Below are positions 50 through 43,162 of a stretch of 49,013 bases of DNA, in pieces. The number at the start of each line of letters is the position of its first letter. The stretch's first letter is position 1. The notes below the pieces were generated by a model that was not told the DNA's origin, searched no databases, and saw nothing but the letters and a program-made list of their open reading frames with translations. This DNA comes from a virus. The DNA lies in the UHGV virus genome UHGV-0069399; one strand, 5' to 3'. The position numbers and the translations under genes were made by a program.

Positions 50-721
50 ATGTGTGGACGTTTTTCACAGTCAATGACGCGTGAAGACTATCTAGCCCTT
101 CTCGCTGAAGAAGTCGAACGAGACATTCCATATGGCCCTGAACCGATCGGACGTTTCAACGTTGCGCCCGGAACCAAAGTTCTGCTACTGAGCGAACGTG
201 ATGAGAAACTCCATCTTGATCCAGTTATCTGGGGATACGCCCCCGGGTGGTGGGATAAACCACCACTAATTAATGCACGCTCTGAAACTGCGGCCACCAG
301 CAGAATGTTTAAACCACTCTGGCAGTATGGTCGTGCAATTTGCTTTGCTGATGGATGGTATGAATGGAAAAAGGAAGGTGACAAAAAGCAGCCCTACTTC
401 ATTCATCGAGCCGATGGCCAGCCGATATTCATGGCGGCGATCGGCAGAACACCATTCGAACGTGGAGATGAAGCAGAAGGATTCCTGATAGTGACGGCTG
501 CTGCAGACAAAGGGCTGGTAGATATTCACGACAGGCGGCCGCTGGTTCTGTCACCAGAAGCCGCTCGCGAATGGATGAGGCAGGACATTGGAGGGAAAGA
601 AGCTACGGTAATTGCGGCTGACGGTTCCGTGCCGGCTGATAAATTTTCATGGCATGCTGTAATGCGTGCCGTCGGGAATGTTAAGAATCAAGGACCAGAG
701 TTAATAGAAACTATGCGTTGA
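50..721 (+). CDS. yedK: SOS-response-associated peptidase (SRAP, YedK-like abasic-site processing protein)
   Basis: 223-aa ORF starting MCGRF, with Cys2 directly after the initiator Met (the SRAP nucleophile position); size and WGYAPGWW / PLINARSE motifs fit the family; GC typical of the host. Confidence 0.8.
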   Translation: MCGRFSQSMTREDYLALLAEEVERDIPYGPEPIGRFNVAPGTKVLLLSERDEKLHLDPVIWGYAPGWWDKPPLINARSETAATSRMFKPLWQYGRAICFADGWYEWKKEGDKKQPYFIHRADGQPIFMAAIGRTPFERGDEAEGFLIVTAAADKGLVDIHDRRPLVLSPEAAREWMRQDIGGKEATVIAADGSVPADKFSWHAVMRAVGNVKNQGPELIETMR

Positions 722-999
722 CGTACGAAGCGACAGAGAAAAACATCTGCTTTGAGCGAAAAGTGGCAGTTGAAGACAATCATGAACGATCTATGACTCG
801 ATATTTACTTAATTCACTGTTATTCAAAGGGTTAAGTAAAAAAATATTATCTGTCACCTCAGTGCAATGCAATCTAAGGTTTCAAAGAACCCCCCTTTGA
901 GTACACCGTAAGTTTTAAAATGTGAGGTAAGTTGATTTTACATATTTTCTAATGCATTATCATACGTCCCTTAAAATAAATCATATTACTGAGAAAAAA

Positions 1000-2022
1000 A
1001 TGTCCAACATTAATTTATTCGATGATGTAGTGCCTTTAGAAAAACAACATCCAATATATACAATGATGAAAGAAGAACGCTACAAACCGGAGAGAGATGT
1101 AATTAATCAATGGGCAAAAGGATTTCAAGACCGAGACAATAAATTTGCTAAAGAATTTCAAACAAGTTTTGAACCTTGCCTATGGGAATTATATCTTTTT
1201 GCCTATCTGAAAGAATTAGGCTTAAGGAGCGACTTTTCATACGACGCTCCTGACTTCGTCGTCAATGATCCAGATTTTTGCATTGAGGCAACTATTGCAC
1301 TTCCAGCACAAGGAGACCTTGGGGCGCATGGTTTCAGTAAGGAAGATATGCCGAGAGATTTTAATAAATTTAATTCTGAAGCATCTATTCGACTTAGTAA
1401 TAGCTTTATATCAAAGGTTAAAAAATTAAGATCGAGATATTCTCTACTTCCTCAATGTAAAGAAAAACCTTTTGTAATCGCCATAGCTTCATTCGACAGA
1501 CCTTTTGCACACTTTGCAGCAGCTAGGCCCATACTTGCAACATTATATGGCCTATACCATGATGAAGAAGCAACCATTGAATCAGGGTCAAAGAGTATAA
1601 TTTCTTATAACGTCGATGCTGCAGTAAAAAAAGAAAATGTTAATATAGACATGGGGTTATTCTGCACACCTGAATATTCGGATGTAAGTGCTGTGATTTA
1701 TAGTAGTTTAGCTACTTGGGGAAAAGTAAGAGCCCTTGCGGACAACCCTTCTGCTCTAACGATTTATACATCATTTACTCCAAAGGAAAACTCATTATTT
1801 CCTGAAGTTCATCAAGCCTTAAAAAGTGATTATGTAGAACATCTAGCGGATGGGTTATATATTTTACACAACCCATTTGCCAAGCATCCATTGCCTAAAG
1901 AGACACTAAGTCATCCAAGAATAGCGCAAGGTTATATTGAGCCAGATGGATACGTTAATTTTATAGCGCCAGATGATTTTCTTTTATTGCGTTTTTTACA
2001 ATCGTTAAATTTGAAAGAGTAG
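1000..2022 (+). CDS. hypothetical protein, AT-rich islet gene A (~340 aa)
   Basis: Long ORF in markedly AT-rich DNA. ATG at 1000 (MSNINLFDD) preferred over the ORF-track start at 952, which has no RBS. No family recognised by eye. Confidence 0.6.
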   Translation: MSNINLFDDVVPLEKQHPIYTMMKEERYKPERDVINQWAKGFQDRDNKFAKEFQTSFEPCLWELYLFAYLKELGLRSDFSYDAPDFVVNDPDFCIEATIALPAQGDLGAHGFSKEDMPRDFNKFNSEASIRLSNSFISKVKKLRSRYSLLPQCKEKPFVIAIASFDRPFAHFAAARPILATLYGLYHDEEATIESGSKSIISYNVDAAVKKENVNIDMGLFCTPEYSDVSAVIYSSLATWGKVRALADNPSALTIYTSFTPKENSLFPEVHQALKSDYVEHLADGLYILHNPFAKHPLPKETLSHPRIAQGYIEPDGYVNFIAPDDFLLLRFLQSLNLKE

Positions 2023-2256
2023 TAATTATGGTCACATCTAATTACTTTACATAGATACCCACTAGAAAGGGGACTTTTCTTAAAACTCAGCCGTCAAAGA
2101 TTTAGAGTGGTTATCTACTGGTATGCTTCCGAATCTGCCAGTGCGGCTGAGTGGATTTCTAGTACCCTCTAGAAGATTTAGTTGATTAAAACAGGTCATG
2201 TATCATCTTCAGAGTCAACATATCGCCAACTGTCTATCATTCCATTGAGGAAAAGT

Positions 2257-3030
2257 ATGTCATCAGAAAATTTTGTCACCTTCTGGCTCGCTAGAGCCGA
2301 TCTTCCATACTTTCTTGAACCTCATGAATTTTACGTTTCGGAGGCCAAGCGTAGACTTCTATCGCAGTTTGGCGATTTAGAACAAGAAGCAGAAAGGAGG
2401 GAACAACAGTATTTGGAAGCTACCTCAAAATATTTCGATCCTGATAACGATGATCCAATGGCTGCCTACGAGCAAGCCTACCACGTGGGAATTAATTATG
2501 TATGGTCGCTTCTGGAGATGCAAAATACCGTGTTGTTGGCATTAACGGCAGGAATGTACCACCAGTTTGATAAAAAACTAAGAGAACACACCATCAAAGA
2601 ACTAAGTAACTGGTGCAAAAGAGAATTAATTACTCCCATGATCTGGAATATAACTTTCCATCAGCTTATTGATTTACTCGAATGGATTGGCCTCAAAATC
2701 AATGGAACCGGATACGGAGAGAGGATCAAAGCCTGTAACTTGGTAGTAAACGTATACAAGCATGGGGACGGGCCTGCGCATCAAACACTATCATTCAATC
2801 ATCCTGAGTACTATCAACACCCTACCGATGTTCGAGGTACGCAGAACATACATGACCATGATGATTTACATGTATCAGAAGAGCAATTTGTAGAGTTTGC
2901 TGACGCAATAACTGAATTCTGGAAAGCAGTTCCAGAGAATTGCTATTACTCAGATCTCAAAGAAGAACCCAAATGGTTGAGTAAAGTCGTAACAAAATTC
3001 GATAAAAAACAGAAGGGAAATAGGGACTAA
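2257..3030 (+). CDS. hypothetical protein, AT-rich islet gene B (~257 aa)
   Basis: ORF in AT-rich DNA; ATG at 2257 (MSSENFVTF) is preceded by GAGGAAAA at RBS spacing. No family recognised. Confidence 0.6.
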   Translation: MSSENFVTFWLARADLPYFLEPHEFYVSEAKRRLLSQFGDLEQEAERREQQYLEATSKYFDPDNDDPMAAYEQAYHVGINYVWSLLEMQNTVLLALTAGMYHQFDKKLREHTIKELSNWCKRELITPMIWNITFHQLIDLLEWIGLKINGTGYGERIKACNLVVNVYKHGDGPAHQTLSFNHPEYYQHPTDVRGTQNIHDHDDLHVSEEQFVEFADAITEFWKAVPENCYYSDLKEEPKWLSKVVTKFDKKQKGNRD

Positions 3031-3318: not shown

Positions 3319-3708
3319 TCACATCACTGGGCAGTCATCAAACTCCGCGTTCCTGGCATCATTAATGATGTACGTGATAACACCAAATATTGCGTGTGAA
3401 GAATTATAGCCATCACCGTCTTCTGGCAGCACTTCTCTTCTCCCGTTCTCCAGATTTATCAGGTGGGGCTGAGGGTGAGTTCGGTATCGCTTGATCCTGA
3501 ATTCCCCATCTATCGCGCATATCAGCAGCGAGCCATCACAGGCTGAAAGCGACGCGTCCACAACAAGTAGTGCCCCCTGGATTATCCCTTCCCTGAAATG
3601 TGAACACGATGCCCGCATGAAATAAGTCGCTGCGGGCTGGCTGATTAGCTGTTGATCGAGGGAAATCCTTGTTTCAACGTAATCACTGGCAGGTGAAGGG
3701 AAGCCCAT
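3319..3708 (-). CDS. UmuD'-like protein (LexA/S24-fold, begins at the cleavage-site Gly; catalytic Ser apparently replaced)
   Basis: Translation from ATG 3708 (MGFPSPASDYVE...ATYF...LLVVD...IDGEFRIKR) aligns along its length with E. coli UmuD from Gly25 (GFPSPAADYVEQ...), as recalled from memory. GGAGG RBS 8 nt upstream of this ATG; ATG lies 2 nt after the stop of the upstream small ORF. The ORF-track start at 3807 would overlap that ORF by ~97 nt. Confidence 0.7.
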   Translation of the reverse strand: MGFPSPASDYVETRISLDQQLISQPAATYFMRASCSHFREGIIQGALLVVDASLSACDGSLLICAIDGEFRIKRYRTHPQPHLINLENGRREVLPEDGDGYNSSHAIFGVITYIINDARNAEFDDCPVM

Positions 3709-3710
3709 GG

Positions 3711-3953
3711 CTATAGTCCTCCGTTTGGATTGAAAAGCTGAAAGGTACGGTTCTCCCCTTCCTGCGTTGATACATCGCGGAATGATGTCACATACCACTC
3801 GATCCATTCGTTAGCCTGCTTCATCGTCCAGTTCCAGTTAACCTTGCTCAGTTCCTGGACAAACCGCTGTGTGGTGACGGTCTTCCGGCCATTAGGTTCT
3901 TGCTGTATCGAAGCATGCCAGGCCATTTCAATATCGCTGCGTCGTGGCATCAA
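3711..3953 (-). CDS. hypothetical small protein (80 aa), first gene of the LexA-boxed operon; candidate SOS-induced regulator/antirepressor
   Basis: GAGGGG RBS ~7 nt upstream of ATG 3953; LexA box 40 nt upstream; tightly coupled to the downstream UmuD'-like gene. No family recognised. Confidence 0.5.
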   Translation of the reverse strand: MMPRRSDIEMAWHASIQQEPNGRKTVTTQRFVQELSKVNWNWTMKQANEWIEWYVTSFRDVSTQEGENRTFQLFNPNGGL

Positions 3954-6362: not shown

Positions 6363-7037
6363 TTAATCATATGCAGCTGTGTTTATCGCCGTTATCACAA
6401 TTCCACTATTTGTCGTACCGATTGAAGAGCCGCTTGCTGTTGTTGATGTAAGTCCTTTTATTCTCGTTCCCGCACCTTCATTGAAGCAACCTGTACCCAC
6501 ATCCACAGACTGAATGATTGGCTGTCCACCAGGTGCCGAACCAGCATGAAGGAGAACAGATCCCAGCCCCATCGGATTTATGGCCCATTTGCCTGCCATG
6601 TATGTATCAATGTTAAGCCCACCACTTACAGCACCTGGTGAACCAATAGTTGTAAGGTCGCTTAATACCCGGGACTCATTCGTAAGTACCAGTGTCCCTT
6701 CGGCATCCCATATAGCCACCCCCCAGGCAGGAAGCGTAAGCGGATATATGGCAAAAAAATAGGCCTCAAGGACAAAAGCCGATCCCCTGTAATTAGACGC
6801 ATTAACACTGAACGTATTGCCACTTTTTGAAGCTGATATCTTCGCCGGGGCGCTGGTTCGTGCAAATGCAATCCCTCCCTTCTGACCGTCGATAGTAACA
6901 GACGCCGAAACACTGTTAAAATTCCCCCCAAAAGTTGAGTTTACAGTGACTTTCCGGTAAAGCGTCATTGGTGTGGAATCAGGCGTGATAAAAGGGTTCC
7001 CGTTAGGTAATGAAATCAATGCGCCATATTTAGCCAT
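6363..7037 (-). CDS. hypothetical tail-associated protein (224 aa) downstream of J
   Basis: Tightly packed after the 104-aa ORF and J; Gly/Ser/Thr-rich, fibre-like composition. Confidence 0.6.
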   Translation of the reverse strand: MAKYGALISLPNGNPFITPDSTPMTLYRKVTVNSTFGGNFNSVSASVTIDGQKGGIAFARTSAPAKISASKSGNTFSVNASNYRGSAFVLEAYFFAIYPLTLPAWGVAIWDAEGTLVLTNESRVLSDLTTIGSPGAVSGGLNIDTYMAGKWAINPMGLGSVLLHAGSAPGGQPIIQSVDVGTGCFNEGAGTRIKGLTSTTASGSSIGTTNSGIVITAINTAAYD

Positions 7038-7352
7038 CTACGCAGTCTCCGCAAAAACGATTAACTGCACTTTGACTGCCGGGTAATCATTAATCCCATC
7101 ACTACCTGAAGGCTGTATTGTTATGGTGTTTCCAGATGCAATAATATTTCTTTTATCTGTGTAACTTATTGTCCCTTTATCCTCCAGAGTACCAACCGCA
7201 AAACCGACCTTTAAACCGGGCTCGAGGTTGAACTGGTAGCTTCCCGTTTTCTGACCTAAAGCAAGATCGATGATTCCCACCACGGTTACAGGTTTAATGC
7301 CATAGTTATTCGGGACACCGTTAGCGTCCCATGTCTGAATTCCCCATGTCAT
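7038..7352 (-). CDS. hypothetical tail-associated protein (104 aa) downstream of J
   Basis: Start abuts the J stop; same strand and operon. Confidence 0.6.
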   Translation of the reverse strand: MTWGIQTWDANGVPNNYGIKPVTVVGIIDLALGQKTGSYQFNLEPGLKVGFAVGTLEDKGTISYTDKRNIIASGNTITIQPSGSDGINDYPAVKVQLIVFAETA

Positions 7353-10300
7353 CAGAATACCCCTGTTAATTTGCCAATCTGCACGCGGAGAACGCCATTG
7401 CCATCTTTAACGCTGTAATTCAGATTGGTCATTTTCGTTGCCCCCTCCCCGGCAACAGCCCCATTCATTTCAAACGTTCCGTCTGATTTCATAATGGTGC
7501 CTGTTTGTCCCTGAACATAATTAGCGGAGCGCAGTTCGCCAATTTTTGCCAGAGTGATTTGACTATACTGAATAAAAGCATCGCTGATAAACACCTGACC
7601 ATTAATAGAAGCAAACGGAGAATATTGTGTATCACCGCTGCCACTCATCAGGACGAACTGATTGGCGTTAAAGCCGACACGGGTGACTACCGGCTTACCC
7701 GCTTCGGCCAGCACGGCAATCGACATCCCGGCGTTATACATCACACCGTTTATTCGAACTCCGGTTTTAAGAGTGTAAATTGCAGATGCCCCGGTCGCAT
7801 CAACCACGGCGGTGAGCTTATCTTCCAGCGCGGCAGTCACATCATTGAACTGCGCCTGCACCTGCGTCGACATTTCAGCCATGGCTTTATCGACCTGCGC
7901 AATGGTCGTTTTAACCACCAGAATATCCGCGCGTACCTCGCCGTACTGCGCCCACTGGTGTTCCACGGTTGCATGGTTGGCCAGCGCGTTCTGCAATGCG
8001 GCTTCGAGATTGGTATCAATGTCGCCAGTCAGGCGGTCACCGTCGGCAGATGTCAGGAAGTCATCAGCAATATCGCCCAGGTAGTCGTCAGCATTCGCAT
8101 TAGATTCACCACGAACCCAGTCGGTCCAGTCACTCTGATTACCAATGCGATCAACCAGACGAGCCCGGTACCAGAACTCCTGACCTGCCTTCAAACCCAG
8201 TTGGGTATATGTGTGTTGAGGATACGGAACTCCTGCAAGCAGCAGAGGATTATCCCCATTTCCGTTTGCTGAATACTGCAGTTCGGTCTGGAGAGTATCA
8301 CCTGTATCCGCCGGAAAGGACCAGTCAGCCTGTATGCCCCAGTTGATTGCTGTGGTGCGCAGACCAACCGGCTTGGGAACATCCCCAGTACGTCCAGTGA
8401 GATGAGTCAGCACAGAAGAGGTCCACAAACTGGACGCTCCACCAGAGTTAATGGCGCGGACTCTCACGAGGTAATCGCCTGAGAAAATCCCGGCGATCTC
8501 TATATTGCGCAAGCCTGTTTCGGGAATGTTGATCCACTCATTATCACCACGTTTCCACTGTGCCTGATACGCGACAATATCCGCCTGAGGTTTCCCGTTT
8601 TTATCTACTGGCGCATCCCAACTCGCAACCATGGTTGCAATACGCTGCCCCTGCCGGACCGAGTCGTAACTGCTAATCGCGATATTCGTGGGCTGGCTAA
8701 CCAGGCCTATCGGTAACAGACTAATCGGCGGCGTATCCAGCCGGGCGTTGTTATCAACGGCATCGTACTTAGCCCCGTTGTACTCTGCACCGGTGATACT
8801 GTAGGTGTTCTCTTCATCGTTAAATGTCAGATTGGTTACACGGAAATACTGGAGGCGCAACTGGCCTGCATCGATAACAAAAATGGCATTAGGTTGTGGC
8901 TCAGCGGTAAAGGCAGTAGCCAGTATCAGTTGCTGGCCGTTAACCGCCTGAATGGTTCTGCTCTCAACGGTACCGCCCAGGGTACGAATCATCAGCGTAT
9001 CACCCGCCACCGCACTCGTGCCGCGATCGGTAGTTACTGACTTCAACCCTGCATCGTAATCAGTAATACGTCCACCATAGACACGCCCAGACAGCCGCTC
9101 ATCTGCAAACGCAAATACGGTCCCCGGCACATAAGCGAAGCCATCGAGTCCCGTCTGGACAGTGATAATACGGTCCAGAGAATTGGAGTACACTGCCCAA
9201 CCACCCCGGCGCTGAGCTTCGCTTTCACGTGTGCAGCCAATCGCGGTTAGCTGAGTCTGCTTAAACTTGAACTGCTTAACCAGATCGGGAAACATCACTG
9301 CAGTAGTGCGATCCTGATAGTGGTTATCCGGGTCACTAAAGTTAATCAGCGCTGAGCTATAGCGATTCTTTTCACTGCCGCTGGAATAGGTTGGTTTCCC
9401 GACCACAGAGGCACGGGTGAGGATCTGAAGTTTTGACGTATCCGCAGGCATATCAGAGACAACATTGAACATGTTGTTGCCCCAGAAAGTCATTCCGTTG
9501 AAGCCCGCGGCAATATCTTTAATCACCTGCCAGGCATCAGCCTGGGACTGGATGTAAACGTCAAACATGAAGCGTGGCTCGGTAACGCTTCCGCCTTTCC
9601 CGTCGGGTACCTTCTGGTCGCAGCGCTGGGCGATGCGATAGAGCTCCCACTTATCGAGCATTTCTGGCGTCACGCGGCGCCCAAGACCGAAGCGCGGCTC
9701 AGTCACAACATCGAACCAAATCCACGCCGGGTTATTCGTCCAGCCCCATTTAAACGTCCCGTCCCATGTTCCGCTATAAGTCCGCGCTATTGGATCATAG
9801 TTCGAAGGGATTCGGATGATGCGCCCCTTCGGCATGCAGGAAATCTTAGGGATGTTGTTGAATGACTTTGCGTTAAAGGACACGTACAGCAGCGCTGTGT
9901 GTGGATATCGTAGGCGAGCATCGATCACCTCAGTAATCGCTTGCACCTGCGTTTTGTTCTGCAGCATCTGGCTGGTGCTGTCATCGGTGTCACGCACCAC
10001 TCGAATTTGCCAGCCAGTGCTGGCTTTGGGAAGATTAATACGGTGGGTTAGTTCATAGAGCGAACTGAGCTTCTCTGTGACGGTTTTAGTCATGACTGTC
10101 GAGTAAGCGCCACCGTCCACCGCAAGGTCAATATGGTACTGAACCGTGGTGCCGACAATATCCCCATCGTTTTCCTGCTGCTGTAACCCAGGGATGCCAA
10201 TACGAACCAGCACCGCGTCAATCTGGGTGTTACTCAGTGCGCGGGTCCATGGTGTGGCCTTTGTCAGCGATACGCCAACCGTAGTTTCATTCTCGACTGC

Positions 10301-10561
10301 AGGGAATCCCGGTATTGGTGTCTGTGTCTGTGTGCCAGGCCGGAATTCCCATGACACATTTTCAAAATTCATCGTTCCGTCGGGGTTTCCCAACGGCGTA
10401 CCGTCCAGGAATATCCGGGTCGCATCCAGGCCACCAGCAAACTCACCCTCCCCGAGCGCCAGCAGCATGCGGCAGCGCGCCATTGACTGAGCCGAATCGG
10501 GCTGTTCTACAGGTGTATGCTGCTTCTGGCTGCCACCCTTTGCACCAGTGATCACTTCCAT
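7352..10561 (-). CDS. host-specificity / central tail fibre protein J
   Basis: ~1070 aa; start chosen at ATG 10561 (MEVITGAKGGSQKQHTP...), which aligns with the lambda J N-terminus (MGKGSSKGHTPREAK...); internal FKWGWTNNPAWIWFDVVTEPRFGLG block matches lambda J. ORF-track start at 10708 is probably too long. Confidence 0.9.
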   Translation of the reverse strand: MEVITGAKGGSQKQHTPVEQPDSAQSMARCRMLLALGEGEFAGGLDATRIFLDGTPLGNPDGTMNFENVSWEFRPGTQTQTPIPGFPAVENETTVGVSLTKATPWTRALSNTQIDAVLVRIGIPGLQQQENDGDIVGTTVQYHIDLAVDGGAYSTVMTKTVTEKLSSLYELTHRINLPKASTGWQIRVVRDTDDSTSQMLQNKTQVQAITEVIDARLRYPHTALLYVSFNAKSFNNIPKISCMPKGRIIRIPSNYDPIARTYSGTWDGTFKWGWTNNPAWIWFDVVTEPRFGLGRRVTPEMLDKWELYRIAQRCDQKVPDGKGGSVTEPRFMFDVYIQSQADAWQVIKDIAAGFNGMTFWGNNMFNVVSDMPADTSKLQILTRASVVGKPTYSSGSEKNRYSSALINFSDPDNHYQDRTTAVMFPDLVKQFKFKQTQLTAIGCTRESEAQRRGGWAVYSNSLDRIITVQTGLDGFAYVPGTVFAFADERLSGRVYGGRITDYDAGLKSVTTDRGTSAVAGDTLMIRTLGGTVESRTIQAVNGQQLILATAFTAEPQPNAIFVIDAGQLRLQYFRVTNLTFNDEENTYSITGAEYNGAKYDAVDNNARLDTPPISLLPIGLVSQPTNIAISSYDSVRQGQRIATMVASWDAPVDKNGKPQADIVAYQAQWKRGDNEWINIPETGLRNIEIAGIFSGDYLVRVRAINSGGASSLWTSSVLTHLTGRTGDVPKPVGLRTTAINWGIQADWSFPADTGDTLQTELQYSANGNGDNPLLLAGVPYPQHTYTQLGLKAGQEFWYRARLVDRIGNQSDWTDWVRGESNANADDYLGDIADDFLTSADGDRLTGDIDTNLEAALQNALANHATVEHQWAQYGEVRADILVVKTTIAQVDKAMAEMSTQVQAQFNDVTAALEDKLTAVVDATGASAIYTLKTGVRINGVMYNAGMSIAVLAEAGKPVVTRVGFNANQFVLMSGSGDTQYSPFASINGQVFISDAFIQYSQITLAKIGELRSANYVQGQTGTIMKSDGTFEMNGAVAGEGATKMTNLNYSVKDGNGVLRVQIGKLTGVF

Positions 10562-10616
10562 ATTACATCCATAAAAAAAGCACCCAATTGGGTGCTTGAT
10601 ATTCAGAAAGGAGTTT

Positions 10617-11210
10617 TCAGATGTCTTCTGCGACGATGCCAGCACTGATGATGGCGCCGCCAATCTCGCGCTCACCATAAAGAAGCGCGACCGGGTTACC
10701 CATCGCAAGGGTGTTCACCGAGCCACCGAAGGCATATGAGGGTCTATTGTCAGGATCGTCTCGCCCCTGTAGTCCTTTGGGCTGGGGCGAAAGCATCTGG
10801 TAAATCCCACCAGCCATCATTCCGATACCAGCGGAGACCATACCCGCGCCAATGATACCTGCTGAACCGAACGTCATGCCCGTGACGACGATGCCCGCCA
10901 CAACCATGACAGCACCCAATATTGTCTGGAACAAACCCGCTTTTTTTGCCCCTTCCATCACGGGTGCTATGCGAATATCGGTGCTTCCGGCTAGGTTCTT
11001 AAAATCATCCGCGCCAATGTTGCGCCTGCCGCGAAACACCGCGAACGTCATACCATTCTTTTTGGCGTTCAAAAGATAGCTTTCCAGCCCGTCCAGGTTG
11101 ATACATAACGCCTTCACGGCTTCCGCTGACGTCTGCACCGCCAGTTTATGCACGCGCCCAAATCGCGCACCCAGCGCACCGTACAATCGAATCGTGGTTA
11201 AGCGCGCCAT
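10617..11210 (-). CDS. tail assembly protein I
   Basis: 197 aa; glycine-rich hydrophobic C-terminus typical of lambda gpI; position between K and J. Confidence 0.85.
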   Translation of the reverse strand: MARLTTIRLYGALGARFGRVHKLAVQTSAEAVKALCINLDGLESYLLNAKKNGMTFAVFRGRRNIGADDFKNLAGSTDIRIAPVMEGAKKAGLFQTILGAVMVVAGIVVTGMTFGSAGIIGAGMVSAGIGMMAGGIYQMLSPQPKGLQGRDDPDNRPSYAFGGSVNTLAMGNPVALLYGEREIGGAIISAGIVAEDI

Positions 11211-12723: not shown

Positions 12724-13074
12724 TCAGGCATAGACGCCATAGGCGCGCTTAATCGTGAATGTCAGCTCAGCGAATTTGCTGCTGAGTTGGTTTTTACGCA
12801 CCGAATCGGTCACGACGCGATACAGACCCATCTCCTCGCCCGGCGGCGTGATGACGAATGCTTTAACGGTATGTGCCAGAAGGAAGTCACGAACAGTATT
12901 CACTTCTGAGTCAGCGCCCACATGCTTCATCGGTATCTGAATCGCCGTGGAATTAATGCCGTTCTCAGCCACCTGCTCGTAGCCATCACCAAACTGCGCC
13001 GAGCGCACCGTTTGACTGTATTCGACAGCACCCGCGCCGAGTTGCGAGTGCCAGTTGTAGGTATCAACTGCCAT
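12724..13074 (-). CDS. minor tail protein M
   Basis: 116 aa, immediately upstream of L; lambda gpM size and position. Confidence 0.8.
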   Translation of the reverse strand: MAVDTYNWHSQLGAGAVEYSQTVRSAQFGDGYEQVAENGINSTAIQIPMKHVGADSEVNTVRDFLLAHTVKAFVITPPGEEMGLYRVVTDSVRKNQLSSKFAELTFTIKRAYGVYA

Positions 13075-13267
13075 ATATACTCCATAAAAAAAACCCAGCC
13101 TGAGCTGGGTTAAACATTAGGTTATTGATTAAGCTGATGAAAAATTAACCTGAAATAACATCCTTGAAAAAAGAATTAGTTACTTCACACATATAAAATG
13201 ATGAAATATGCGACACTCCGTCAATATTTTTATCCATCATAGCTAACCAATTCACAGGGATAGTTTA

Positions 13268-14881
13268 ATGAATATTGTGCATTATGCAGCCATTGGAGCT
13301 GTAGCTTTCGTAGTTGTTCTAACAATTTTGGTGATAAACATCATTAAATTAAAGTCAGCCAAGGCTGATGCAGCAGAAAAGGCGGCAAAACTTGAGCGTT
13401 ACGCGTCAATCACCAATGCTGAAACAGAAGCTGAACGAATCGTGAATGCAGCTAAGCAAACCGCAGAAGAGTTAATTATTGATTCGCAGAATAACCTTGA
13501 CGAGGCAAAAGCTGAAGCAGCCAACACTATTGCAGCCAGTGAAAAAGATGCAAGATCTATAACACAGCGTGCGGAGGATATTCTATCAGATGCGCGTTTA
13601 GCAGCTAAGCGAATGAACGCAGAGGCGCTGACCGCTGTAGAAACACAAAGAGTCAAGCGTGCAGAAATTGAAAAACAGATTGATGAATTGCGTAAATCCT
13701 ATCGTGAGAAAAAAATCACTTACGATGAGCTGACGGAAGCCCTGTCAATTTATAAAGATGATATGGAATTTGCTGACATGGGGTTCTATGCACCACACTT
13801 CGATTTTGATACCTCGGCTAGTTTTCAGGATGCGATCAAGGCATGTCGCGAACGGCAAAAAAATCTGCTACGTGACAAAACTGAATTTGGCGCAATACAT
13901 TGCCCTACTGAATGGACGGTTGGCGGCTCTAAAAGTGAAGGTCGGAAAATGACCACTCGCGGCATTCAGATGACAGCACGTGCATTCAATGGTGAGTGTG
14001 ATGCAGCTATTGCAAACTGCACATTTAAAAACGTTTATCAAATGGAGCAAAGAATTTATAAAGCCTTTGATGCCTTGAATAAGATGAATGAGGTTAACCA
14101 GATTTACATCAATCGTGCTTTTTTAGATTTGAAGCTGGATGAACTTCGACTTACACATGAATATCGTTTGAAAAAACAAGAAGAACGAGAAGAACAACGT
14201 GAAATCCGCGCTCAGATGGCTGAGGAGAAGCGAGCTCAAGCCGAAATTGATCGTGCACTTCGAGAGGCTGAAGATGAAGAACGCCGCGCCCAAAAAGCGT
14301 TGGATAAAGCCCGAAAAGAAATGGAATCGAAGCTAGCCCAAATGACAGCTGAGCAAGTTGAGAAACACCAAGCGAAGGTATCCGAATTAGAACATGCCTT
14401 AGAAGAGGCATTGTTGAAAGGCCAAAAAGCTCTTTCTATGGCTCAACAAACTAAACGCGGCCACGTGTACGTTATCTCTAATATTGGTTCGTTTGGTGAT
14501 GATGTTTTTAAAATAGGAATGACACGTCGACTTGACCCTCAAGATCGAGTGGATGAACTGGGTAGTGCATCAGTCCCATTCCTGTTCGATGTTCATGCAA
14601 TGATTTTCAGTGAAGATGCACCAACAATGGAAAACATGCTCCACCAGCGTTTCAATGAGCAACGCACTAACCTAGTTAATAAGCGTAAAGAGTTTTTCAA
14701 TGTAAAATTAAGCGATATCAAAGATGCTGTGTTTGAGATCGCAGGTAAAGATGTAGATTTTATCGAAACAGCAACTGCTCAGCATTATTATGAAACAAAG
14801 GCAATTCGTAAGCAGAAAGCGGATATCATTTCAGTTGTTCCTCAAGAGGAAAAACTACCTAAATTTGCGGACGCAATATAA
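13268..14881 (+). CDS. membrane-anchored coiled-coil protein with DUF4041-like core and C-terminal T5orf172 (MUG113, GIY-YIG-like) domain; inserted accessory gene
   Basis: 537 aa on the opposite strand to the flanking tail genes. N-terminal hydrophobic helix (AAIGAVAFVVVLTILVINII), long charged coiled-coil stretches, C-terminal GHVYVISNIGSFGDDVFKIGMTRRLDPQDRVDELG...FNVKLSDIKDAV matching the T5orf172 signature. Own AT-rich promoter region and terminator. Confidence 0.85.
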   Translation: MNIVHYAAIGAVAFVVVLTILVINIIKLKSAKADAAEKAAKLERYASITNAETEAERIVNAAKQTAEELIIDSQNNLDEAKAEAANTIAASEKDARSITQRAEDILSDARLAAKRMNAEALTAVETQRVKRAEIEKQIDELRKSYREKKITYDELTEALSIYKDDMEFADMGFYAPHFDFDTSASFQDAIKACRERQKNLLRDKTEFGAIHCPTEWTVGGSKSEGRKMTTRGIQMTARAFNGECDAAIANCTFKNVYQMEQRIYKAFDALNKMNEVNQIYINRAFLDLKLDELRLTHEYRLKKQEEREEQREIRAQMAEEKRAQAEIDRALREAEDEERRAQKALDKARKEMESKLAQMTAEQVEKHQAKVSELEHALEEALLKGQKALSMAQQTKRGHVYVISNIGSFGDDVFKIGMTRRLDPQDRVDELGSASVPFLFDVHAMIFSEDAPTMENMLHQRFNEQRTNLVNKRKEFFNVKLSDIKDAVFEIAGKDVDFIETATAQHYYETKAIRKQKADIISVVPQEEKLPKFADAI

Positions 14882-14899
14882 CATTTCAATGACAAATTT

Positions 14900-14926
14900 A
14901 AGGGCGGTTTTTAATCGCCCTTTTAT
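14900..14926. terminator. bidirectional rho-independent terminator between the convergent inserted genes
   Basis: AAGGGCG-gtttttaat-CGCCCTT hairpin with T-rich flank. Confidence 0.6.
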
Positions 14927-14941
14927 GTTAAAAGTCATTAG

Positions 14942-15424
14942 TTACATGTTTTTGTAATAGCCGACTTTAGAATCAAAGTCCTGTTTTGCGAGTGGCGTTT
15001 GGCTTGTCACATAAGTCTCCCAGGAGCTGTACGCCTCTACGAGCGCGCGCTTTTCTTCTGCATCCTTAGTACTCGATTTCATTATTTCAAACACTCCAGA
15101 AGCATTCTCTTTGCGTTTGTTTTTTCTGTTAGCGCCGCAAGTCGCTATTGCATCGGCTACAGAATTATTCCACCCAACCAACTGCAGGATCTCCATTCTC
15201 TTTTGAATCACGAACTGATCCGCAGACGCATTCCGTGCCTGAGTCGACAGGTATTCAGCAAACTCCATTTTGTTCATTGGCACTTTGGAGACTGACTCAA
15301 TATTTACGTCACACTTCGAAAGCTCATCATACTTGGCTTGTTTTTGCGCGTTGTTGACTGGACCATTGCCCGCGCACGCAGAAAGAGCCATTGCTAACAC
15401 CACTGTCGTGAAGACCTTTTTCAT
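14942..15424 (-). CDS. lipoprotein (~160 aa), inserted accessory gene between tape measure and gpM
   Basis: Signal peptide plus lipobox LSAC; start chosen at ATG 15424 (MKKVF...) with GGGGA RBS; AT-rich. Confidence 0.75.
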   Translation of the reverse strand: MKKVFTTVVLAMALSACAGNGPVNNAQKQAKYDELSKCDVNIESVSKVPMNKMEFAEYLSTQARNASADQFVIQKRMEILQLVGWNNSVADAIATCGANRKNKRKENASGVFEIMKSSTKDAEEKRALVEAYSSWETYVTSQTPLAKQDFDSKVGYYKNM

Positions 15425-15524
15425 TATCATCCCCTGATTAGTATGGTTTTGACATAATAACCATGGGAGGCATCGGTGTAACCAGGTACGGGTTATATTG
15501 CCATATCAGAATTTACGACGATGC

Positions 15525-18500
15525 CTATTTTGGCTGGAACTGCCTACCAAGGAGGCCATCACTTCGAGTTGCCCTCATAAGGATCTCCGTCACCTTAGTT
15601 TCTATTTCCTTCCCTAACGCCCGCGCTGCTGCGCCTCCGTCTCCAGATGTGTTAGATGTTGCATTGCCCTTATTATCGACATAAATATCAATGTTGACCT
15701 GCGGCTGGGCTCCACCTCCACCCTGCGCCCTTACACCAAGTCTTCCAGCAGAATCCCGTGTCAGCGGCATGATGGCCTCTTCACCTGCCTCAGCAAAAAC
15801 TCCACCTTTGGCGAATTTAGATGCCCCTTGGAAGGTGAAATACTGAGGAGAGTCGTAGACGCCATTCACGTACTTACTGAGGCCCGGAGACTCATAGACT
15901 CCGCCTTTTGCGTTCGGGGTGAATGATGGAACAGCGAATGATTGCCCGCCCCCAGCCGAAGCAACAGAGCCACCACTGATCCACCCCATTGCGGCCTGCA
16001 CTGCATAGGCAACCATGAGGCGGTTCGTCACATCAAGGATCATCTTGAGCATGGATTTGCCGAATTCTTTAACTGATGCTTTGCCAGTGGTCATCAGCTC
16101 AGTCAGCATGTCGCCCAAGCCAGTCAGCGTGGAGCTGGCGACGTTTTTCACAGCATCGTATGTGTTAGTGGCAGCGTCCAGATACTCATTCCATCCGCTT
16201 AAAGCACCAGCCTTCCAATCACCGCGAAGCTTATCCTCTTCGGCGTAGTAGTTACGAAGGGCTGCCAGCTCTTTCTCATAGCCAGCATCTTCTAGCTTTC
16301 CGCCACCATTCAGCCATCCCTGACGAAGCTGCGCTTCTTCGGTCATTCGCTGAGCCATACGACTGCTTAAACCTGACCCGCTACGTAACGCCTCAGACTT
16401 TTCAGCCATCTGCGTTACATACTTATTAGCCTGCTGTGCCAGGCCGTTAATCTTCTGCTGGGCCTCTACTTCTTTGTTCTTCTGATCCACAACCTTCGCG
16501 GCATTCAGAATGGCTTCTCGGCTAGACAGGAGTGACTTCTCCTGCGCGGTCAGTGCGCGGGTTTTGGCAGCCTCGTCCAGTTCCACAAAGCGTGACTGTT
16601 GTTTGCTGAATTCGGTATTTTTGGCGTGAATATCGCCGGTCTGACGCAGGGTTTCGAGGGTTTCCGTTAAGGTCCTTGCCTGCGCCCGGTAGTTCTCCAG
16701 GGTGCGATCGCCAGCATCGAGTGTTGCTTTCGCTTCTTTTGTCTTTTTGGCTGAGTCTTCTGCAAGCTTCGAGACTGCGTTTCTCGACTCGCGGCTCGAG
16801 CCCCCTTCCCCTTTAACGCTGGCACCTCGCGCTTCGGCTTCATAGCTTGCCTGTGCATTAGGCGCAGTGACCCGCTTCCAGAGTTCATCGTAGCGTTTTT
16901 TGTTCGCTGCGATCTCTTTGTCAGCTTCCGCCCCGGCCTTTTTCATAGCCTCAACATCCATGCCGAGGAAGTCGGTTATTGCTCCGCCGCCCGGGATTTT
17001 CTCAGCCCATCCTGCAATGGTCCCAGTAAACTTGGAATCCAGAGAGGTAATGTTGAGGAACAGGTCCTTTATCGAAGCTTCAACCAGGTTGAAAATATCG
17101 ATCACCTGATTTCCCCAGGCGCGGACAGTAATCCCGATATCATCAAAGGAGTCAGATGCTGTTTTCTTCAACCACTGCCAGGACTGCCCAATATTGTCGG
17201 TGGCCCTGTTGGTCTCTTCTGCGCGCTTTGCCATAACGCCAGCAAACAGGTTGATGGCTTCGTTTACCGCCGCCTGCTCCCCCTTCTGCTTACGCAACTG
17301 GATGATGTGCTTCATCATGGCTTCATCAACAAAGCCATACTGCTCATTCAGGCTGGCCAGCCCTTTCACCGGGTCGCTGACAATCTTGCCGAAGTCGGAC
17401 ATCGCCGTTTTGGTGTCACTGCCAGCCTTGCCCATCAGAGTGATGGACGTGGCGATCTGCTTCATCTGGCTGGCGGTATATTTACCAGTGTCATTCAGCG
17501 TAACCAGCGTATCTACGGTGGAACTGATGGATGTATTCGTCTTGCCGGCCACCTCTTCAGCAGCCTCATTGAGCTTCTGCATTGAGGAAAAACCAGCGCC
17601 ACCCATCATGATGACCGATCGCGCCACTTGGTCGAATTGCTCGGATGAACTATATGCCGCAGTAGCCAGCAGACCAACCGTACCGACCAGACCTGCCAGC
17701 GCAATAGTGGTTGGGTTAATCATCCCAGCCATGCTGCGGATGTATTCGCCGACGCCAGTGAGCGCCCCCTGAACCCCGCCAAACTGGTCTTTAATCTGCC
17801 CGCCCTGTTGCAGCAGGATCAGGAAAGGAGACTGCCCACCAGCCAGCTGCGTGGCGATATCGGTGAACTGTGCTGGTAGTGTGCGCATTGCTGCGCTGTA
17901 CTGGCCGACAGATATACCGGCACGACGCGCCGCAGCCTCCTGGCGAGATAGTGCCTCTGGCAGCACGTCAGCCACGCCAGACAGGCGCTCACGCGTCTGG
18001 TTCAGGATTGTATTGAAGTGCTCGAACTGCGCGCCGTTAATACGCCCCGCTTCGAAGTGTGCCACCAACTGCGCATGCTGCTCATCCAGCGAGTTAAACG
18101 CGCGGATAGTCGGGTCGATAGAGCCCAGCAGGTTTTTCAGTGCTGCTGATTGTTTCTCGGCAGCCTGGGTCGCGGCCAGTTCTGCCTGGGCGCGCGCCGC
18201 TGCTTCTCCGGTATCCGTCAGTTTTAACCGGGTCTCGTCCAGGATTTTGTTGTAGTGCTGAAAATCATCAGTATCCAGGAAACCTTTGGTCTGGAAGTTG
18301 CGCAGTGCGGCCTGTTGTTCATCCAGCCGGTTCAGCGCCTTGTTAACTGGATCGATATTCTCCAGCAGCCCCTTCAGCGCGATCTGCTGTTCCTTGATAC
18401 CTTCAGTGCCCTGTTTCGCAGACTCAGCACCAGCACGGAATACGCTATTAAGGTCATCAGCTTTGCCTACGGCACCCGCCGCGGCTTCACCGAGTTTATC

Positions 18501-18572
18501 CAGCTCGTTGCTGGCTGTTTTCAGGTCAGAAACATCGGCCCGTAAAGTAATCGAGGCGATCTGGTCAGTCAT
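15525..18572 (-). CDS. tail tape measure protein
   Basis: 1015 aa, Ala/Gln-rich coiled-coil composition, position between G/T and M. Confidence 0.9.
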   Translation of the reverse strand: MTDQIASITLRADVSDLKTASNELDKLGEAAAGAVGKADDLNSVFRAGAESAKQGTEGIKEQQIALKGLLENIDPVNKALNRLDEQQAALRNFQTKGFLDTDDFQHYNKILDETRLKLTDTGEAAARAQAELAATQAAEKQSAALKNLLGSIDPTIRAFNSLDEQHAQLVAHFEAGRINGAQFEHFNTILNQTRERLSGVADVLPEALSRQEAAARRAGISVGQYSAAMRTLPAQFTDIATQLAGGQSPFLILLQQGGQIKDQFGGVQGALTGVGEYIRSMAGMINPTTIALAGLVGTVGLLATAAYSSSEQFDQVARSVIMMGGAGFSSMQKLNEAAEEVAGKTNTSISSTVDTLVTLNDTGKYTASQMKQIATSITLMGKAGSDTKTAMSDFGKIVSDPVKGLASLNEQYGFVDEAMMKHIIQLRKQKGEQAAVNEAINLFAGVMAKRAEETNRATDNIGQSWQWLKKTASDSFDDIGITVRAWGNQVIDIFNLVEASIKDLFLNITSLDSKFTGTIAGWAEKIPGGGAITDFLGMDVEAMKKAGAEADKEIAANKKRYDELWKRVTAPNAQASYEAEARGASVKGEGGSSRESRNAVSKLAEDSAKKTKEAKATLDAGDRTLENYRAQARTLTETLETLRQTGDIHAKNTEFSKQQSRFVELDEAAKTRALTAQEKSLLSSREAILNAAKVVDQKNKEVEAQQKINGLAQQANKYVTQMAEKSEALRSGSGLSSRMAQRMTEEAQLRQGWLNGGGKLEDAGYEKELAALRNYYAEEDKLRGDWKAGALSGWNEYLDAATNTYDAVKNVASSTLTGLGDMLTELMTTGKASVKEFGKSMLKMILDVTNRLMVAYAVQAAMGWISGGSVASAGGGQSFAVPSFTPNAKGGVYESPGLSKYVNGVYDSPQYFTFQGASKFAKGGVFAEAGEEAIMPLTRDSAGRLGVRAQGGGGAQPQVNIDIYVDNKGNATSNTSGDGGAAARALGKEIETKVTEILMRATRSDGLLGRQFQPK

Positions 18573-29073: not shown

Positions 29074-29265
29074 ATGAGTAATTATAAAATTGGTGACAAA
29101 GTGAAACTTAAATCCGGCGGACCGGTTATGACTGTTCATGACACCAATGTGCAAGTCCCAAAATATCGGGGAAACTTACGGTGCCAATGGTTTGCAGGAA
29201 AGAAACTTGAAGAAGGTTATTTCCCGGATGACTCACTTGAGGAAGTCGGGGATGACGAACAATAA
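29074..29265 (+). CDS. DUF2158/YodC-like small protein (63 aa)
   Basis: AGGAGCAGG RBS then ATG at 29074; MSNYKIGDKVKLKSGGPVMTV motif typical of the YodC-like small-protein family; opposite strand to the structural operon. Confidence 0.65.
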   Translation: MSNYKIGDKVKLKSGGPVMTVHDTNVQVPKYRGNLRCQWFAGKKLEEGYFPDDSLEEVGDDEQ

Positions 29266-29524
29266 GGATCAAACCATCCTCTGGATGCTTGAACATCTCA
29301 AAAAAGACGGATGTCTATATCAAGATGATGTAGTCGATCATTTGGTTAAAACTAAAAATGAAGACCTTTTAGTTGAGAATGCCGACGGAAATTTAGCTTT
29401 GAGTCGTCAGATTCTTACTTTGTTTATGAAACATACAGCAGACGATGTTGTTTGGGTTAAGCCGCAGCGTTATTGGCGCTATCGTGTCGCTGAGGATGAA
29501 CCTGGTCGTGAGGCCCGTGGGTAA
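29252..29524 (+). CDS. hypothetical protein (90 aa), coupled to the YodC-like gene
   Basis: ATG overlaps the stop of the upstream gene; followed by a terminator. Confidence 0.55.
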   Translation: MTNNKDQTILWMLEHLKKDGCLYQDDVVDHLVKTKNEDLLVENADGNLALSRQILTLFMKHTADDVVWVKPQRYWRYRVAEDEPGREARG

Positions 29525-38421: not shown

Positions 38422-38826
38422 TTACTTTAATTTATATATTAAACAATCCACAATATCCAAACCATTAACCATACTATTTGAAAGTCGAACTTTGCTATTT
38501 TCAATAGAGAATGCTCCTTTCATCATTTTATAAATAAAAGCAGACTCTCCTTTAGCTTCGATTGCTTCAAGTGGTATGGAATGGTATTTATTTGATCTAT
38601 TATCTCTATTGATTTGACTTATAAGGCTATAAACGAATGTAGGCCCTTTCTCCTCAAGATCACTTATTACCAAAATATATTTCCAAGAAAACATTTCCCC
38701 ATAAAAAAACCACATGGCAGCGGATAAAGCTACTCCTTTCTTCTCTAACTCTTTCATTAGAAATTGGCCAGAATTTTCCATAGAGGTCGTCATTGAGTGA
38801 CCTATTACCAGTGACTTCTTACCCAT
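38422..38826 (-). CDS. hypothetical protein (134 aa), downstream partner of the HEPN-like gene; possible degenerate minimal nucleotidyltransferase
   Basis: Very AT-rich; start overlaps the HEPN-like gene's 3' end by ~22 nt; contains a G-E-x11-S-D-L-E stretch loosely resembling the MNT G[SG]-x9-13-DxD motif. Confidence 0.6.
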   Translation of the reverse strand: MGKKSLVIGHSMTTSMENSGQFLMKELEKKGVALSAAMWFFYGEMFSWKYILVISDLEEKGPTFVYSLISQINRDNRSNKYHSIPLEAIEAKGESAFIYKMMKGAFSIENSKVRLSNSMVNGLDIVDCLIYKLK

Positions 38827-39227
38827 TGCAAAACTCCAGATTGATTATTCTCAGCTGCTTCGATGAGCTGCTCCGCCATAGCCCGACTGATAGTAGTTTC
38901 GTAGCGGAGTTGTTCACTCCAATCCTTCATAACAGTCCAAAATATTTCAAACTGCCCATCCTGGGCAGCTAATTGTCTATGTGATAGTTGTAGGCTCGCC
39001 ACCTGCATGAGCTTTGTTAGATCATGAACATGTGAGTCCATGGCTAACTTCTTGTCAGGAAATTGAAATGCCGTCACATTTTTTGCTATACATGCTTTAA
39101 GAGCGCACTCAACTGCGTATCCGCAGAGGTAGTATGCACCATGATATAATCCATTCTGTAACAGACATTTTGCTTCCGTTAACCTTATACCAGTTAAAAC
39201 TTCTAGGTCAGATTTATTCATTTGCAA
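38805..39227 (-). CDS. HEPN-like domain protein (140 aa)
   Basis: GAYYLCGYAVECALKACIAK ... HDLTKL ... RYETT pattern resembles HEPN-superfamily helices; AT-rich; first gene of an overlapping pair. Confidence 0.6.
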   Translation of the reverse strand: MQMNKSDLEVLTGIRLTEAKCLLQNGLYHGAYYLCGYAVECALKACIAKNVTAFQFPDKKLAMDSHVHDLTKLMQVASLQLSHRQLAAQDGQFEIFWTVMKDWSEQLRYETTISRAMAEQLIEAAENNQSGVLQWVRSHW

Positions 39228-42663: not shown

Positions 42664-42742
42664 GATTACAACATGAAAAAAATATTTTCAATCCTGAATG
42701 AAAATAATCTTTGCAATGCGGAATGAAAGGCTACCTTGTAGA
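42664..42742. promoter_or_regulatory. divergent promoter/operator region of the immunity switch
   Basis: AT-rich intergenic region with palindromic elements (TTGAAATTCAA; TATTTTCA-N8-TGAAAATA) between the cro-like and repressor genes. Confidence 0.55.
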
Positions 42743-43162
42743 ATGGAAGACATGAAAAAAGCACCCAACGAAGCGTTTGCCTACCGACTTCAGCTCGTCA
42801 GAGATGAGTTCGGTTGGAACATGTCAGATATAGCCCGGAGAGCGATGGTTACTCCCCAGGCAGTGCAGCAATGGGCCAAAGGAGAGTCAGCTCCAAGAGG
42901 TGAGCGCTTAAAGCGTCTCGCTGCAGCTGCTGGAAAGCCCGAACATTGGTTTTTCATGCCACCAAATACCGAAGGTGAAGATGCTGGGGTGCATGAGCCA
43001 CCGCGGCAACTGGATGAAAAAGAAATCGCACTGCTTACGTTGTTCAATCAAATGCCAGAAGCTGAAAAGCTACGTTTGATAGTGCATGCCAAGGCTACCT
43101 TGAGAGAGCTTGATCTCCTCAAAGATGATGTGTCTAGCATCATTCAAAGTATTCAGAAGTAA
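42743..43162 (+). CDS. prophage repressor, HTH (XRE/RacR-like), without a LexA-type S24 autocleavage domain
   Basis: HTH (WNMSDIARRAMVTPQAVQQWAKGES) in a ~140-aa protein; no peptidase domain; divergent from the cro-like gene. Start uncertain (ORF-track 42698). Confidence 0.75.
   Translation: MEDMKKAPNEAFAYRLQLVRDEFGWNMSDIARRAMVTPQAVQQWAKGESAPRGERLKRLAAAAGKPEHWFFMPPNTEGEDAGVHEPPRQLDEKEIALLTLFNQMPEAEKLRLIVHAKATLRELDLLKDDVSSIIQSIQK

Follow-up and report, generated by a model that had tools for sequence, protein, structure and literature searches.

The virus genome UHGV-0069399 (49,013 nucleotides; this whole stretch is referred to here as the window) is a near-complete genome of a lambdoid phage or prophage in which most genes lie on the minus strand. 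With increasing coordinate, the genes are ordered as tail fibre, J, I, K, L, M, tape measure, further tail and head genes, and terminase, beyond which are found lysis, nin, replication, immunity, and recombination genes. A gap of 2.45 kb separates M from the tape measure gene, and its GC content (0.416 for positions 13075-15524) is well below the 0.55 of the flanking tail genes. At the downstream edge of this insertion is a lambda M-like minor tail protein gene (12724..13074, minus strand; 116 amino acids [aa]; Pfam Phage_min_tail, 4.6e-19; phrog_14, minor tail protein), while its upstream edge is formed by a lambda H-like tape measure gene (15525..18572, minus strand; 1015 aa; Pfam TMP_2, 3.7e-54, and Tape_meas_lam_C, 3.3e-20; phrog_24). 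Within the gap are two convergent genes, an open reading frame (ORF) of 537 aa on the plus strand (13268..14881, ATG start) and one of 162 aa on the minus strand. The 537-aa ORF, assigned to the SNIPE (PD-Lambda-1) family by PADLOC, Pfam, and BLASTP matches, is the subject of this report. It runs antisense to the tail operon, and the span 13075-14935, which an earlier note on this DNA had singled out, comprises the gene, a 193-bp upstream spacer, and a terminator. That note placed the gene between the tape measure gene and M, against the direction of the tail genes, and ORF calls together with Pfam and PHROGs matches of the neighbours agree with this placement.

Profile searches gave a consistent picture of the 537-aa protein. 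PADLOC matched it to PD-Lambda-1 (PDLC03977) at E = 5e-201, with residues 1-536 aligned on profile positions 1-495 of 496, and its PHROGs match was phrog_1847. Pfam placed the DUF4041 core (PF13250, now named "SNIPE") at residues 238-289 (13979..14134, plus strand; 1.2e-18; 67.2 bits versus a cut-off of 27). In the C-terminal part, T5orf172 was matched at residues 398-490 (14459..14737, plus strand; 1.9e-15; 57.7 bits) along with MUG113 (6e-18; 65.6 bits), both above their curated cut-offs. The earlier note had read DUF4041 and T5orf172 from the letters alone and had named a profile search as the check, and both domains were recovered above Pfam cut-offs. The motif on which it based a T5orf172/MUG113 GIY-YIG-like domain, GHVYVISN...KIGMTRRLDPQDR, was found at residues 398-427.

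At the other end of the protein, codons 7-26 (13286..13345, plus strand) encode a predicted transmembrane (TM) anchor, AAIGAVAFVVVLTILVINII, with a Kyte-Doolittle 19-residue mean of 2.9. This segment is helical in an AlphaFold2 model, and hydropathy analysis found no second hydrophobic segment in the protein besides residues ~7-26, so that the single N-terminal TM helix proposed in the earlier note is retained as a prediction. The lysines that follow it (K27, K29, and K32) suggest an N-out, C-in orientation. The model (mean pLDDT 77) consists of a helix at residues 2-171, a globular domain at 184-283 that contains the DUF4041 core, a second helix at 283-396, and a beta-beta-alpha-beta-alpha domain at 398-500. 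The two long modeled helices are consistent with the long coiled coils that the note had described. The layout as a whole, with a TM segment, long helix, globular domain, long helix, and beta-beta-alpha-beta-alpha domain, is that of published SNIPE.

The fold of the nuclease domain matches that of SLX1, and the features that define the GIY-YIG superfamily are all present: the GIY and YIG strands, the Arg, the catalytic Glu, the Asn, and the beta-beta-alpha-beta-alpha core. Across 28 aligned homologues, the invariant positions include G398..Y401 (GIY), K415-I-G417 (YIG-like), R420/R421/R427, E455, and N468/N471. E455, which corresponds to the catalytic E414 of SNIPE, is kept in 28 of 28 sequences, and the basic residues K227, R231, and R238 of DUF4041 are likewise invariant. 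Copies that are 76 to 92% identical in DNA all retain 537 codons without indels, with dN/dS of 0.03-0.09, and the gene is under purifying selection.

A GIY-YIG domain encoded between conserved tail genes could also be that of a selfish, free-standing homing endonuclease with no benefit to the host. We regard this as highly improbable, given that the nuclease is preceded by a TM anchor and 390 residues of helix plus DUF4041, that the Pfam search found no homing-type DNA-binding module, that close copies occupy nonhomologous sites including tra operons and chromosomal housekeeping regions, and that the tested homologue is a defence protein.

The exact 537-aa protein occurs on several public contigs, one of them a metagenome contig of 71 kb that shares this neighbourhood, and its 90% identity cluster is drawn mostly from Citrobacter freundii, with some members from Kluyvera. 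Database labels for these proteins vary. DAZ53609.1, identical to the product of 13268..14881, was deposited as "MAG TPA: helicase [Caudoviricetes sp.]," and the label given to one JGI relative is "DNA repair exonuclease SbcCD ATPase subunit," both misannotations that arise from the coiled-coil regions. Other records read "DUF4041 domain-containing protein," while newer Pfam and RefSeq annotation already uses the name "SNIPE" for the domain.

The family has been studied experimentally in E. coli. PD-lambda-1 was recovered from E. coli fosmids by functional selection against lambda and gives protection as a single gene (Vassallo et al. 2022). It has since been renamed SNIPE, and its mechanism has been published (Saxton et al., bioRxiv 2025; Nature 2026;653:861). 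E. coli SNIPE is a nuclease bound to the membrane; it cuts the DNA of siphoviruses during injection, with ManYZ and the tape measure protein as its guides (Saxton et al., Nature 2026). PhoA/LacZ fusions place it N-out, C-in at the inner membrane; the substitution E414A removes defence; without the TM segment the protein is a toxic nuclease that cuts the chromosome; and DUF4041 promotes DNA binding and contacts the tape measure protein (Saxton et al.). In the presence of SNIPE, adsorption and DNA uptake are unaltered while injected 32P-labelled lambda DNA is fragmented, and prophage induction is unaffected (Saxton et al.). Protection extends to siphoviruses only, mutations that permit escape fall in the tape measure gene, and DUF4041 mutations including E223K, L253H, and W257R increase defence against Bas14-18 (Saxton et al.). 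Among homologues, the N-terminal membrane-targeting region has one TM segment in 59%. The statement in the earlier note that this architecture has no assigned role is thus superseded by the recognition of the family as a defence gene in 2022 and by the mechanism reported in 2025-26.

We compared the 537-aa protein with the tested one, for which the 500-aa PhiR26_1 protein annotated as PD-lambda-1 served as reference. This protein is identical to WP_000195116.1 (also RCP76574.1 and XSB42081.1; E. coli ECOR26) and has E223, W257, and E414 at the published positions. BLASTP aligned the two proteins over their full length at 49% identity (E = 3e-171). By region, identity is 27% in the TM segment, 34% in the N-terminal helix, 60% in DUF4041, 55% in the second helix, 69% in the nuclease, and 41% in the C-terminal tail, a gradient that follows the conservation pattern published for the SNIPE family. 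Both proteins share the TM anchor, long helix, DUF4041, long helix, GIY-YIG/T5orf172 domain with its catalytic Glu, and a C terminus ending in ...FADAI, and both are encoded on a lambdoid prophage by a single gene opposite in strand to the neighbouring prophage operon. They differ in length, in that the protein in the window is 37 residues longer through ~40 extra residues (90-129) in the N-terminal helix, and in DUF4041, where it has R294 for W257, L301 for E264, and Q342 for K305. The column of W257/R294 holds Arg in 5 of 28 sequences and Trp in 1 of 28; the W257R state selected in the laboratory is therefore the natural residue here. The genes also differ in location, since that of E. coli lies between ren and the Rha/nin region while that of the window lies between the tape measure gene and M, and in host, which is Citrobacter-type for the window and E. 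coli for the tested gene.

Taken together, the sequence, domain order, catalytic residues, fold, purifying selection, and moron-type context clearly identify the 537-aa protein, at the level of sequence and model, as a member of the SNIPE (PD-lambda-1) family. The gene is an add-on moron of a lambdoid prophage of Citrobacter-type Enterobacteriaceae and, to judge from its contexts, behaves as an autonomous single-gene cassette. In the sense of Juhala and Hendrix, a moron is recognized by extra DNA between genes that are adjacent in relatives, by deviant GC content, and by its own transcription signals; the extra DNA, the GC deviation, and the terminators were all found at this locus, and the promoter part is a candidate.

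A terminator scan identified an intrinsic-terminator-like stem-loop of 10 pairs followed by a T tract (14900-14922, plus strand), 19 nucleotides past the SNIPE stop codon and between the convergent genes. The 193-bp upstream spacer is 31% GC. It contains a conserved block, retained at the related loci L012 and L013 although the remaining spacer has diverged there, that can be read as a candidate promoter of the extended -10 type (13179..13207, plus strand), with GTTACT, a 17-nucleotide spacer, and TGAAAT preceded by TG. A consensus promoter scan returned 6 sites versus 5.3 in shuffled sequence, which is not above chance; it did not pick this candidate, and its only match near the gene overlaps the SNIPE start codon. 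The earlier note's claim of an own AT-rich promoter and terminator therefore holds for the terminator and for the AT richness of the spacer, while a promoter belonging to the gene is plausible from the reading of the spacer.

By analogy with the E. coli protein, the published SNIPE model is very probably the best explanation of this locus, namely, a defence protein carried as a moron by the prophage. Under this model, the gene would be expressed from its own transcription unit in the lysogen, and the N-terminal helix would hold the protein in the inner membrane, with DUF4041 and the GIY-YIG domain in the cytoplasm and the nuclease kept off the chromosome. When a superinfecting siphovirus injects, the protein would be at the injection site, possibly with its positioning assisted by an inner-membrane injection factor such as ManYZ, and DUF4041 would contact the incoming tape measure protein and DNA. 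The nuclease, with Glu455 as its catalytic residue, would then cut the entering DNA and the infected lysogen would survive. Induction of the resident prophage would be spared because the protein's action is confined to DNA in the course of injection. For the prophage, this would amount to superinfection exclusion without interference with its own induction. Since the resident tape measure protein is lambda H-like, kin phages are plausible targets, although this is an inference. The suggestion in the earlier note of a membrane-associated nuclease effector for superinfection exclusion, carried as accessory cargo, is supported by the full-length PD-Lambda-1 match, the 49% identity to a tested SNIPE protein, and the published work on the latter.

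The same note offered abortive infection as an alternative, whereby a tethered nuclease would be released or activated on infection, destroy both host and phage DNA, and kill the cell. E. coli SNIPE without its TM segment is toxic and cuts the chromosome, so the enzyme is able to attack host DNA. However, cells that carry SNIPE survive infection and grow at high multiplicity of infection, unlike those of the abortive-infection control PD-lambda-3, and host DNA forced to the membrane is not cleaved (Saxton et al.). The architecture of the 537-aa protein presents no difference from E. coli SNIPE that would suggest release. With direct defence and surviving cells in E. coli SNIPE, abortive infection finds no support for the family, and we consider it very unlikely for this member.

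Several points weigh against a simple transfer of the published model to the window. The 537-aa protein is only 49% identical to the characterized SNIPE; its N-terminal region, the proposed selector of the membrane partner, is 27 to 34% identical and carries ~40 extra residues; and the proposed tape-measure-binding face of DUF4041 differs (R294, L301, and Q342). A sequence-profile search of the PDB returned no solved structure of any family member, and the promoter is a candidate only. Only for the E. coli protein were membrane topology, nuclease activity, cutting of DNA at injection, and an association with both ManYZ and the tape measure protein shown, and the functional steps, lysogen expression, and target range proposed for the 537-aa protein are carried over from it by analogy. 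Given the divergent N-terminal region, both ManYZ association and target range may differ for the 537-aa protein.

The convergent gene (14942..15430, minus strand) encodes a predicted lipoprotein of 162 aa with a signal peptide and the lipobox LSAC (Cys19), as the earlier note had proposed. It matches phrog_8179 (1.1e-47) and is 61% identical in amino acids to MorF of phage phi80, which is annotated as a lipoprotein; a literature search on the function of phi80 MorF returned nothing usable. On the other side of the SNIPE gene, directly upstream of the M start, the tail-gene strand carries a stem-loop and T run (13111-13092, minus strand) that are likely to form a moron-end terminator. Late Q-modified transcription would need to read through this hairpin. 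Its stem is kept in L008, L012, L013, and L014, and phage HK639 has an annotated terminator at the matching place. Furthermore, a 41-nucleotide element (13072-13112) comprising the hairpin terminator with the M ribosome-binding site and start is 88% identical to a segment of phi80 (L002, 5940..5979) located just downstream of morF, between I and J. This match suggests that the terminator was once the end of the lipoprotein moron, from which it is now separated by the SNIPE gene.

It is possible to imagine that lipoprotein and nuclease form a two-gene system, for example, with sensing or blocking at the outer membrane and a nuclease at the inner membrane. The two genes share a low-GC island and co-occur in L004-L009 at 83 to 100% identity, and phage lipoproteins such as Cor are known exclusion factors. 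Across loci, however, DNA similarity is continuous over M, the spacer, and the SNIPE gene as far as its stop codon, where it ends, and the slot by the tape measure gene is variable: it holds the MorF-like lipoprotein in the window, a different lipoprotein and a 90-aa ORF in L014, and a secreted protein of 136-140 aa with an FtsK_gamma protein in L012 and L062. SNIPE copies at 84%, 73%, 67%, and 58% identity lack such a neighbour, the phi80 lipoprotein homologue stands alone between I and J, and PD-lambda-1 protects as a single gene. The MorF-like lipoprotein is not a constant partner of the SNIPE gene, and cooperation between the two appears distinctly unlikely; the two-gene system was rejected as a candidate on the variation of partners among loci.

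We asked where else the gene is found, relying mostly on look-ups of individual homologues; a scan of genome contigs for exact peptide patterns yielded a single close locus (Kluyvera) against 27 distant ones and contributed little to this survey of position. The same order and orientation, with tape measure gene, cargo, antisense SNIPE gene, and M, recur in the viral contigs L006-L009 (97 to 98% protein identity), in L014 and the Kluyvera locus L032 (92%), and in L012, L013, and L062-L064 (84%). In HK639, whose M, L, and K proteins are 87 to 89% identical to those of the window, the gap instead holds a lipoprotein gene, a hypothetical gene, and a gene for a YafO toxin. The H and M genes of phi80 overlap, with no intervening DNA; its MorF homologue is encoded elsewhere, and ES18 has a reverse-strand moron in its tape-measure/M gap. 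The varied cargo in these relatives indicates that the gap is a moron hotspot, a notion that has been reviewed (PMC3594210). The small accessory island posited by the earlier note is thus recovered, both in the low-GC gap shared with the lipoprotein gene and in the variable cargo at this position in relatives. The SNIPE paper does not discuss a tail-operon position, and the phrase "tail operon" is absent from its text.

Position inside the tail operon, adjoining the tape measure gene, could in principle reflect a role in tail assembly or a virion component needed by the phage. The gene is nevertheless on the opposite strand, with its own terminator and deviant GC content; it is absent from the corresponding position in phi80, while unrelated cargo is found there in HK639; and Pfam and PHROGs searches found no match to a virion-protein family. 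We give a virion role next to no credence.

Relatives of the gene that are as close or closer are also found away from the tail operon. An 84% identical copy (L010) lies beside an antirepressor-like gene and lysis genes, a 73% identical copy in Yersinia is in the tra region of a conjugative element and adjoins a TIR protein, 67% and 58% identical copies are located between chromosomal housekeeping genes, and 67% identical copies are carried on Klebsiella phage-plasmids. These variable contexts suggest that the SNIPE gene behaves as an autonomous single-gene cassette that requires neither a particular partner nor linkage to a tape measure gene. For the window gene, operation as a single gene is suggested by context alone, in that neighbours vary and close homologues stand alone. 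In the Yersinia loci (L065-L067, 5001-6614), the 73% homologue is antisense among TraU, TraC, and TraG_N and next to TIR_2; the gene past TIR_2 varies, encoding a YobI-ATPase or a helicase-like protein, and the locus looks like a defence hotspot in a transfer operon. The 67% homologue is a 519-aa protein encoded in L003 (E. coli plasmid pKP389-3, 7659-9218) and in the Klebsiella phages ST13-OXA48phi12.3, vB_Kpn_1825-KPC53, and vB_KpnS_p4727; the carriers are large Klebsiella phage or phage-plasmid genomes of 84-120 kb, in which it is found near RepB and nrdA.

Since SNIPE reads tape measure proteins and has repeatedly been placed beside their genes, both in the Citrobacter/Kluyvera/Raoultella group (downstream, antisense) and in ES18 (upstream, same strand), a SNIPE allele might be kept linked to the neighbouring tape measure allele and so set which kin are excluded or spared. 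The placement would then reflect functional linkage rather than chance moron traffic, and the 537-aa subtype, with its longer stalk and natural Arg at the position of W257, might differ from the E. coli protein in target range and membrane partner. We regard this idea as unlikely. Strict coupling was considered and found to be unsupported: tape measure proteins at these loci are 57 to 94% identical and mosaic while SNIPE is 84 to 98% identical, and close homologues elsewhere, many of them remote from tail genes, have no tape measure gene nearby.

The locus resembles several known systems. Gp19 of Salmonella phage ES18, a DUF4041 protein described as a "possible moron," is 41% identical to the 537-aa protein; its gene, too, adjoins the tape measure gene of a siphovirus tail operon and has a terminator of its own, but it is located on the upstream side of the tape measure gene, shares the strand of the tail genes, and encodes 509 aa. 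HK97 gp15, which acts in superinfection exclusion, is similarly the product of a tail-operon moron that adjoins the tape measure gene; it is an inner-membrane protein expressed from the prophage and keeps the genomes of other siphoviruses from entering in a manner dependent on the incoming tail or tape measure protein. In contrast to SNIPE, it is a small YebO-like membrane protein without a nuclease that blocks injection rather than cutting DNA, and the two have no sequence relationship. Zorya and Kiwa also act at the inner membrane at the injection step, but they are multi-gene systems of unrelated proteins that sense envelope perturbation.

The window contains other genes of interest. A second defence gene (952..2022, plus strand; 356 aa) matches PADLOC PD-T7-5 at E = 3.9e-102 (profile positions 1-340 of 346) and, more weakly, PD-T7-1. 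The GC content of its region is 0.36-0.41, and a Pfam search of the 356-aa protein returned no match. A 282-aa ORF (2182..3030, plus strand; phrog_19541) adjoins it, and the region, at the tail-fibre end, is flanked by genes for an SOS-response-associated peptidase (SRAP; 50..721, plus strand) and a UmuD-like protein (3319..3807, minus strand). Downstream of J is the gene for a 224-aa membrane-associated moron protein (6363..7037, minus strand; phrog_425), at a position where phi80 has N15 gp23-like genes, next to cor. The J-like tail tip ORF (7352..10708, minus strand) was called with a TTG start and is ~49 codons too long; profile matches start at residue 50 (MEVITGAKGG...), and another annotation gives 1069 aa. 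Another low-GC patch, by the terminase small-subunit region, holds a gene for a 128-aa DUF6953 protein (29138..29524, plus strand). Finally, a 140-aa protein (38805..39227, minus strand) has a weak PADLOC match to the candidate PDC-M28A (2.9e-09), and the N-terminal ~60-80 residues of a 154-aa protein encoded near the immunity region (42698..43162, plus strand) match RmrA models (3.5e-08), a match that probably reflects a helix-turn-helix in common rather than a defence system.

The family, its architecture, and its mechanism have already been published, and standard defence-finder models recognize the 537-aa protein; what is new is the 49% identical subtype and its recurrent tail-operon position. 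For annotation, the protein should carry the label SNIPE/PD-lambda-1. In a group of lambdoid prophages of the Citrobacter, Kluyvera, and Raoultella type, the interval separating M from the tape measure gene is a cargo hotspot in which SNIPE is stable while its partner genes are exchanged. The protein also represents a natural variant for studies of SNIPE specificity, being 49% identical to the tested protein, with an N-terminal helix that is longer and an Arg at the site of the defence-enhancing W257R substitution.

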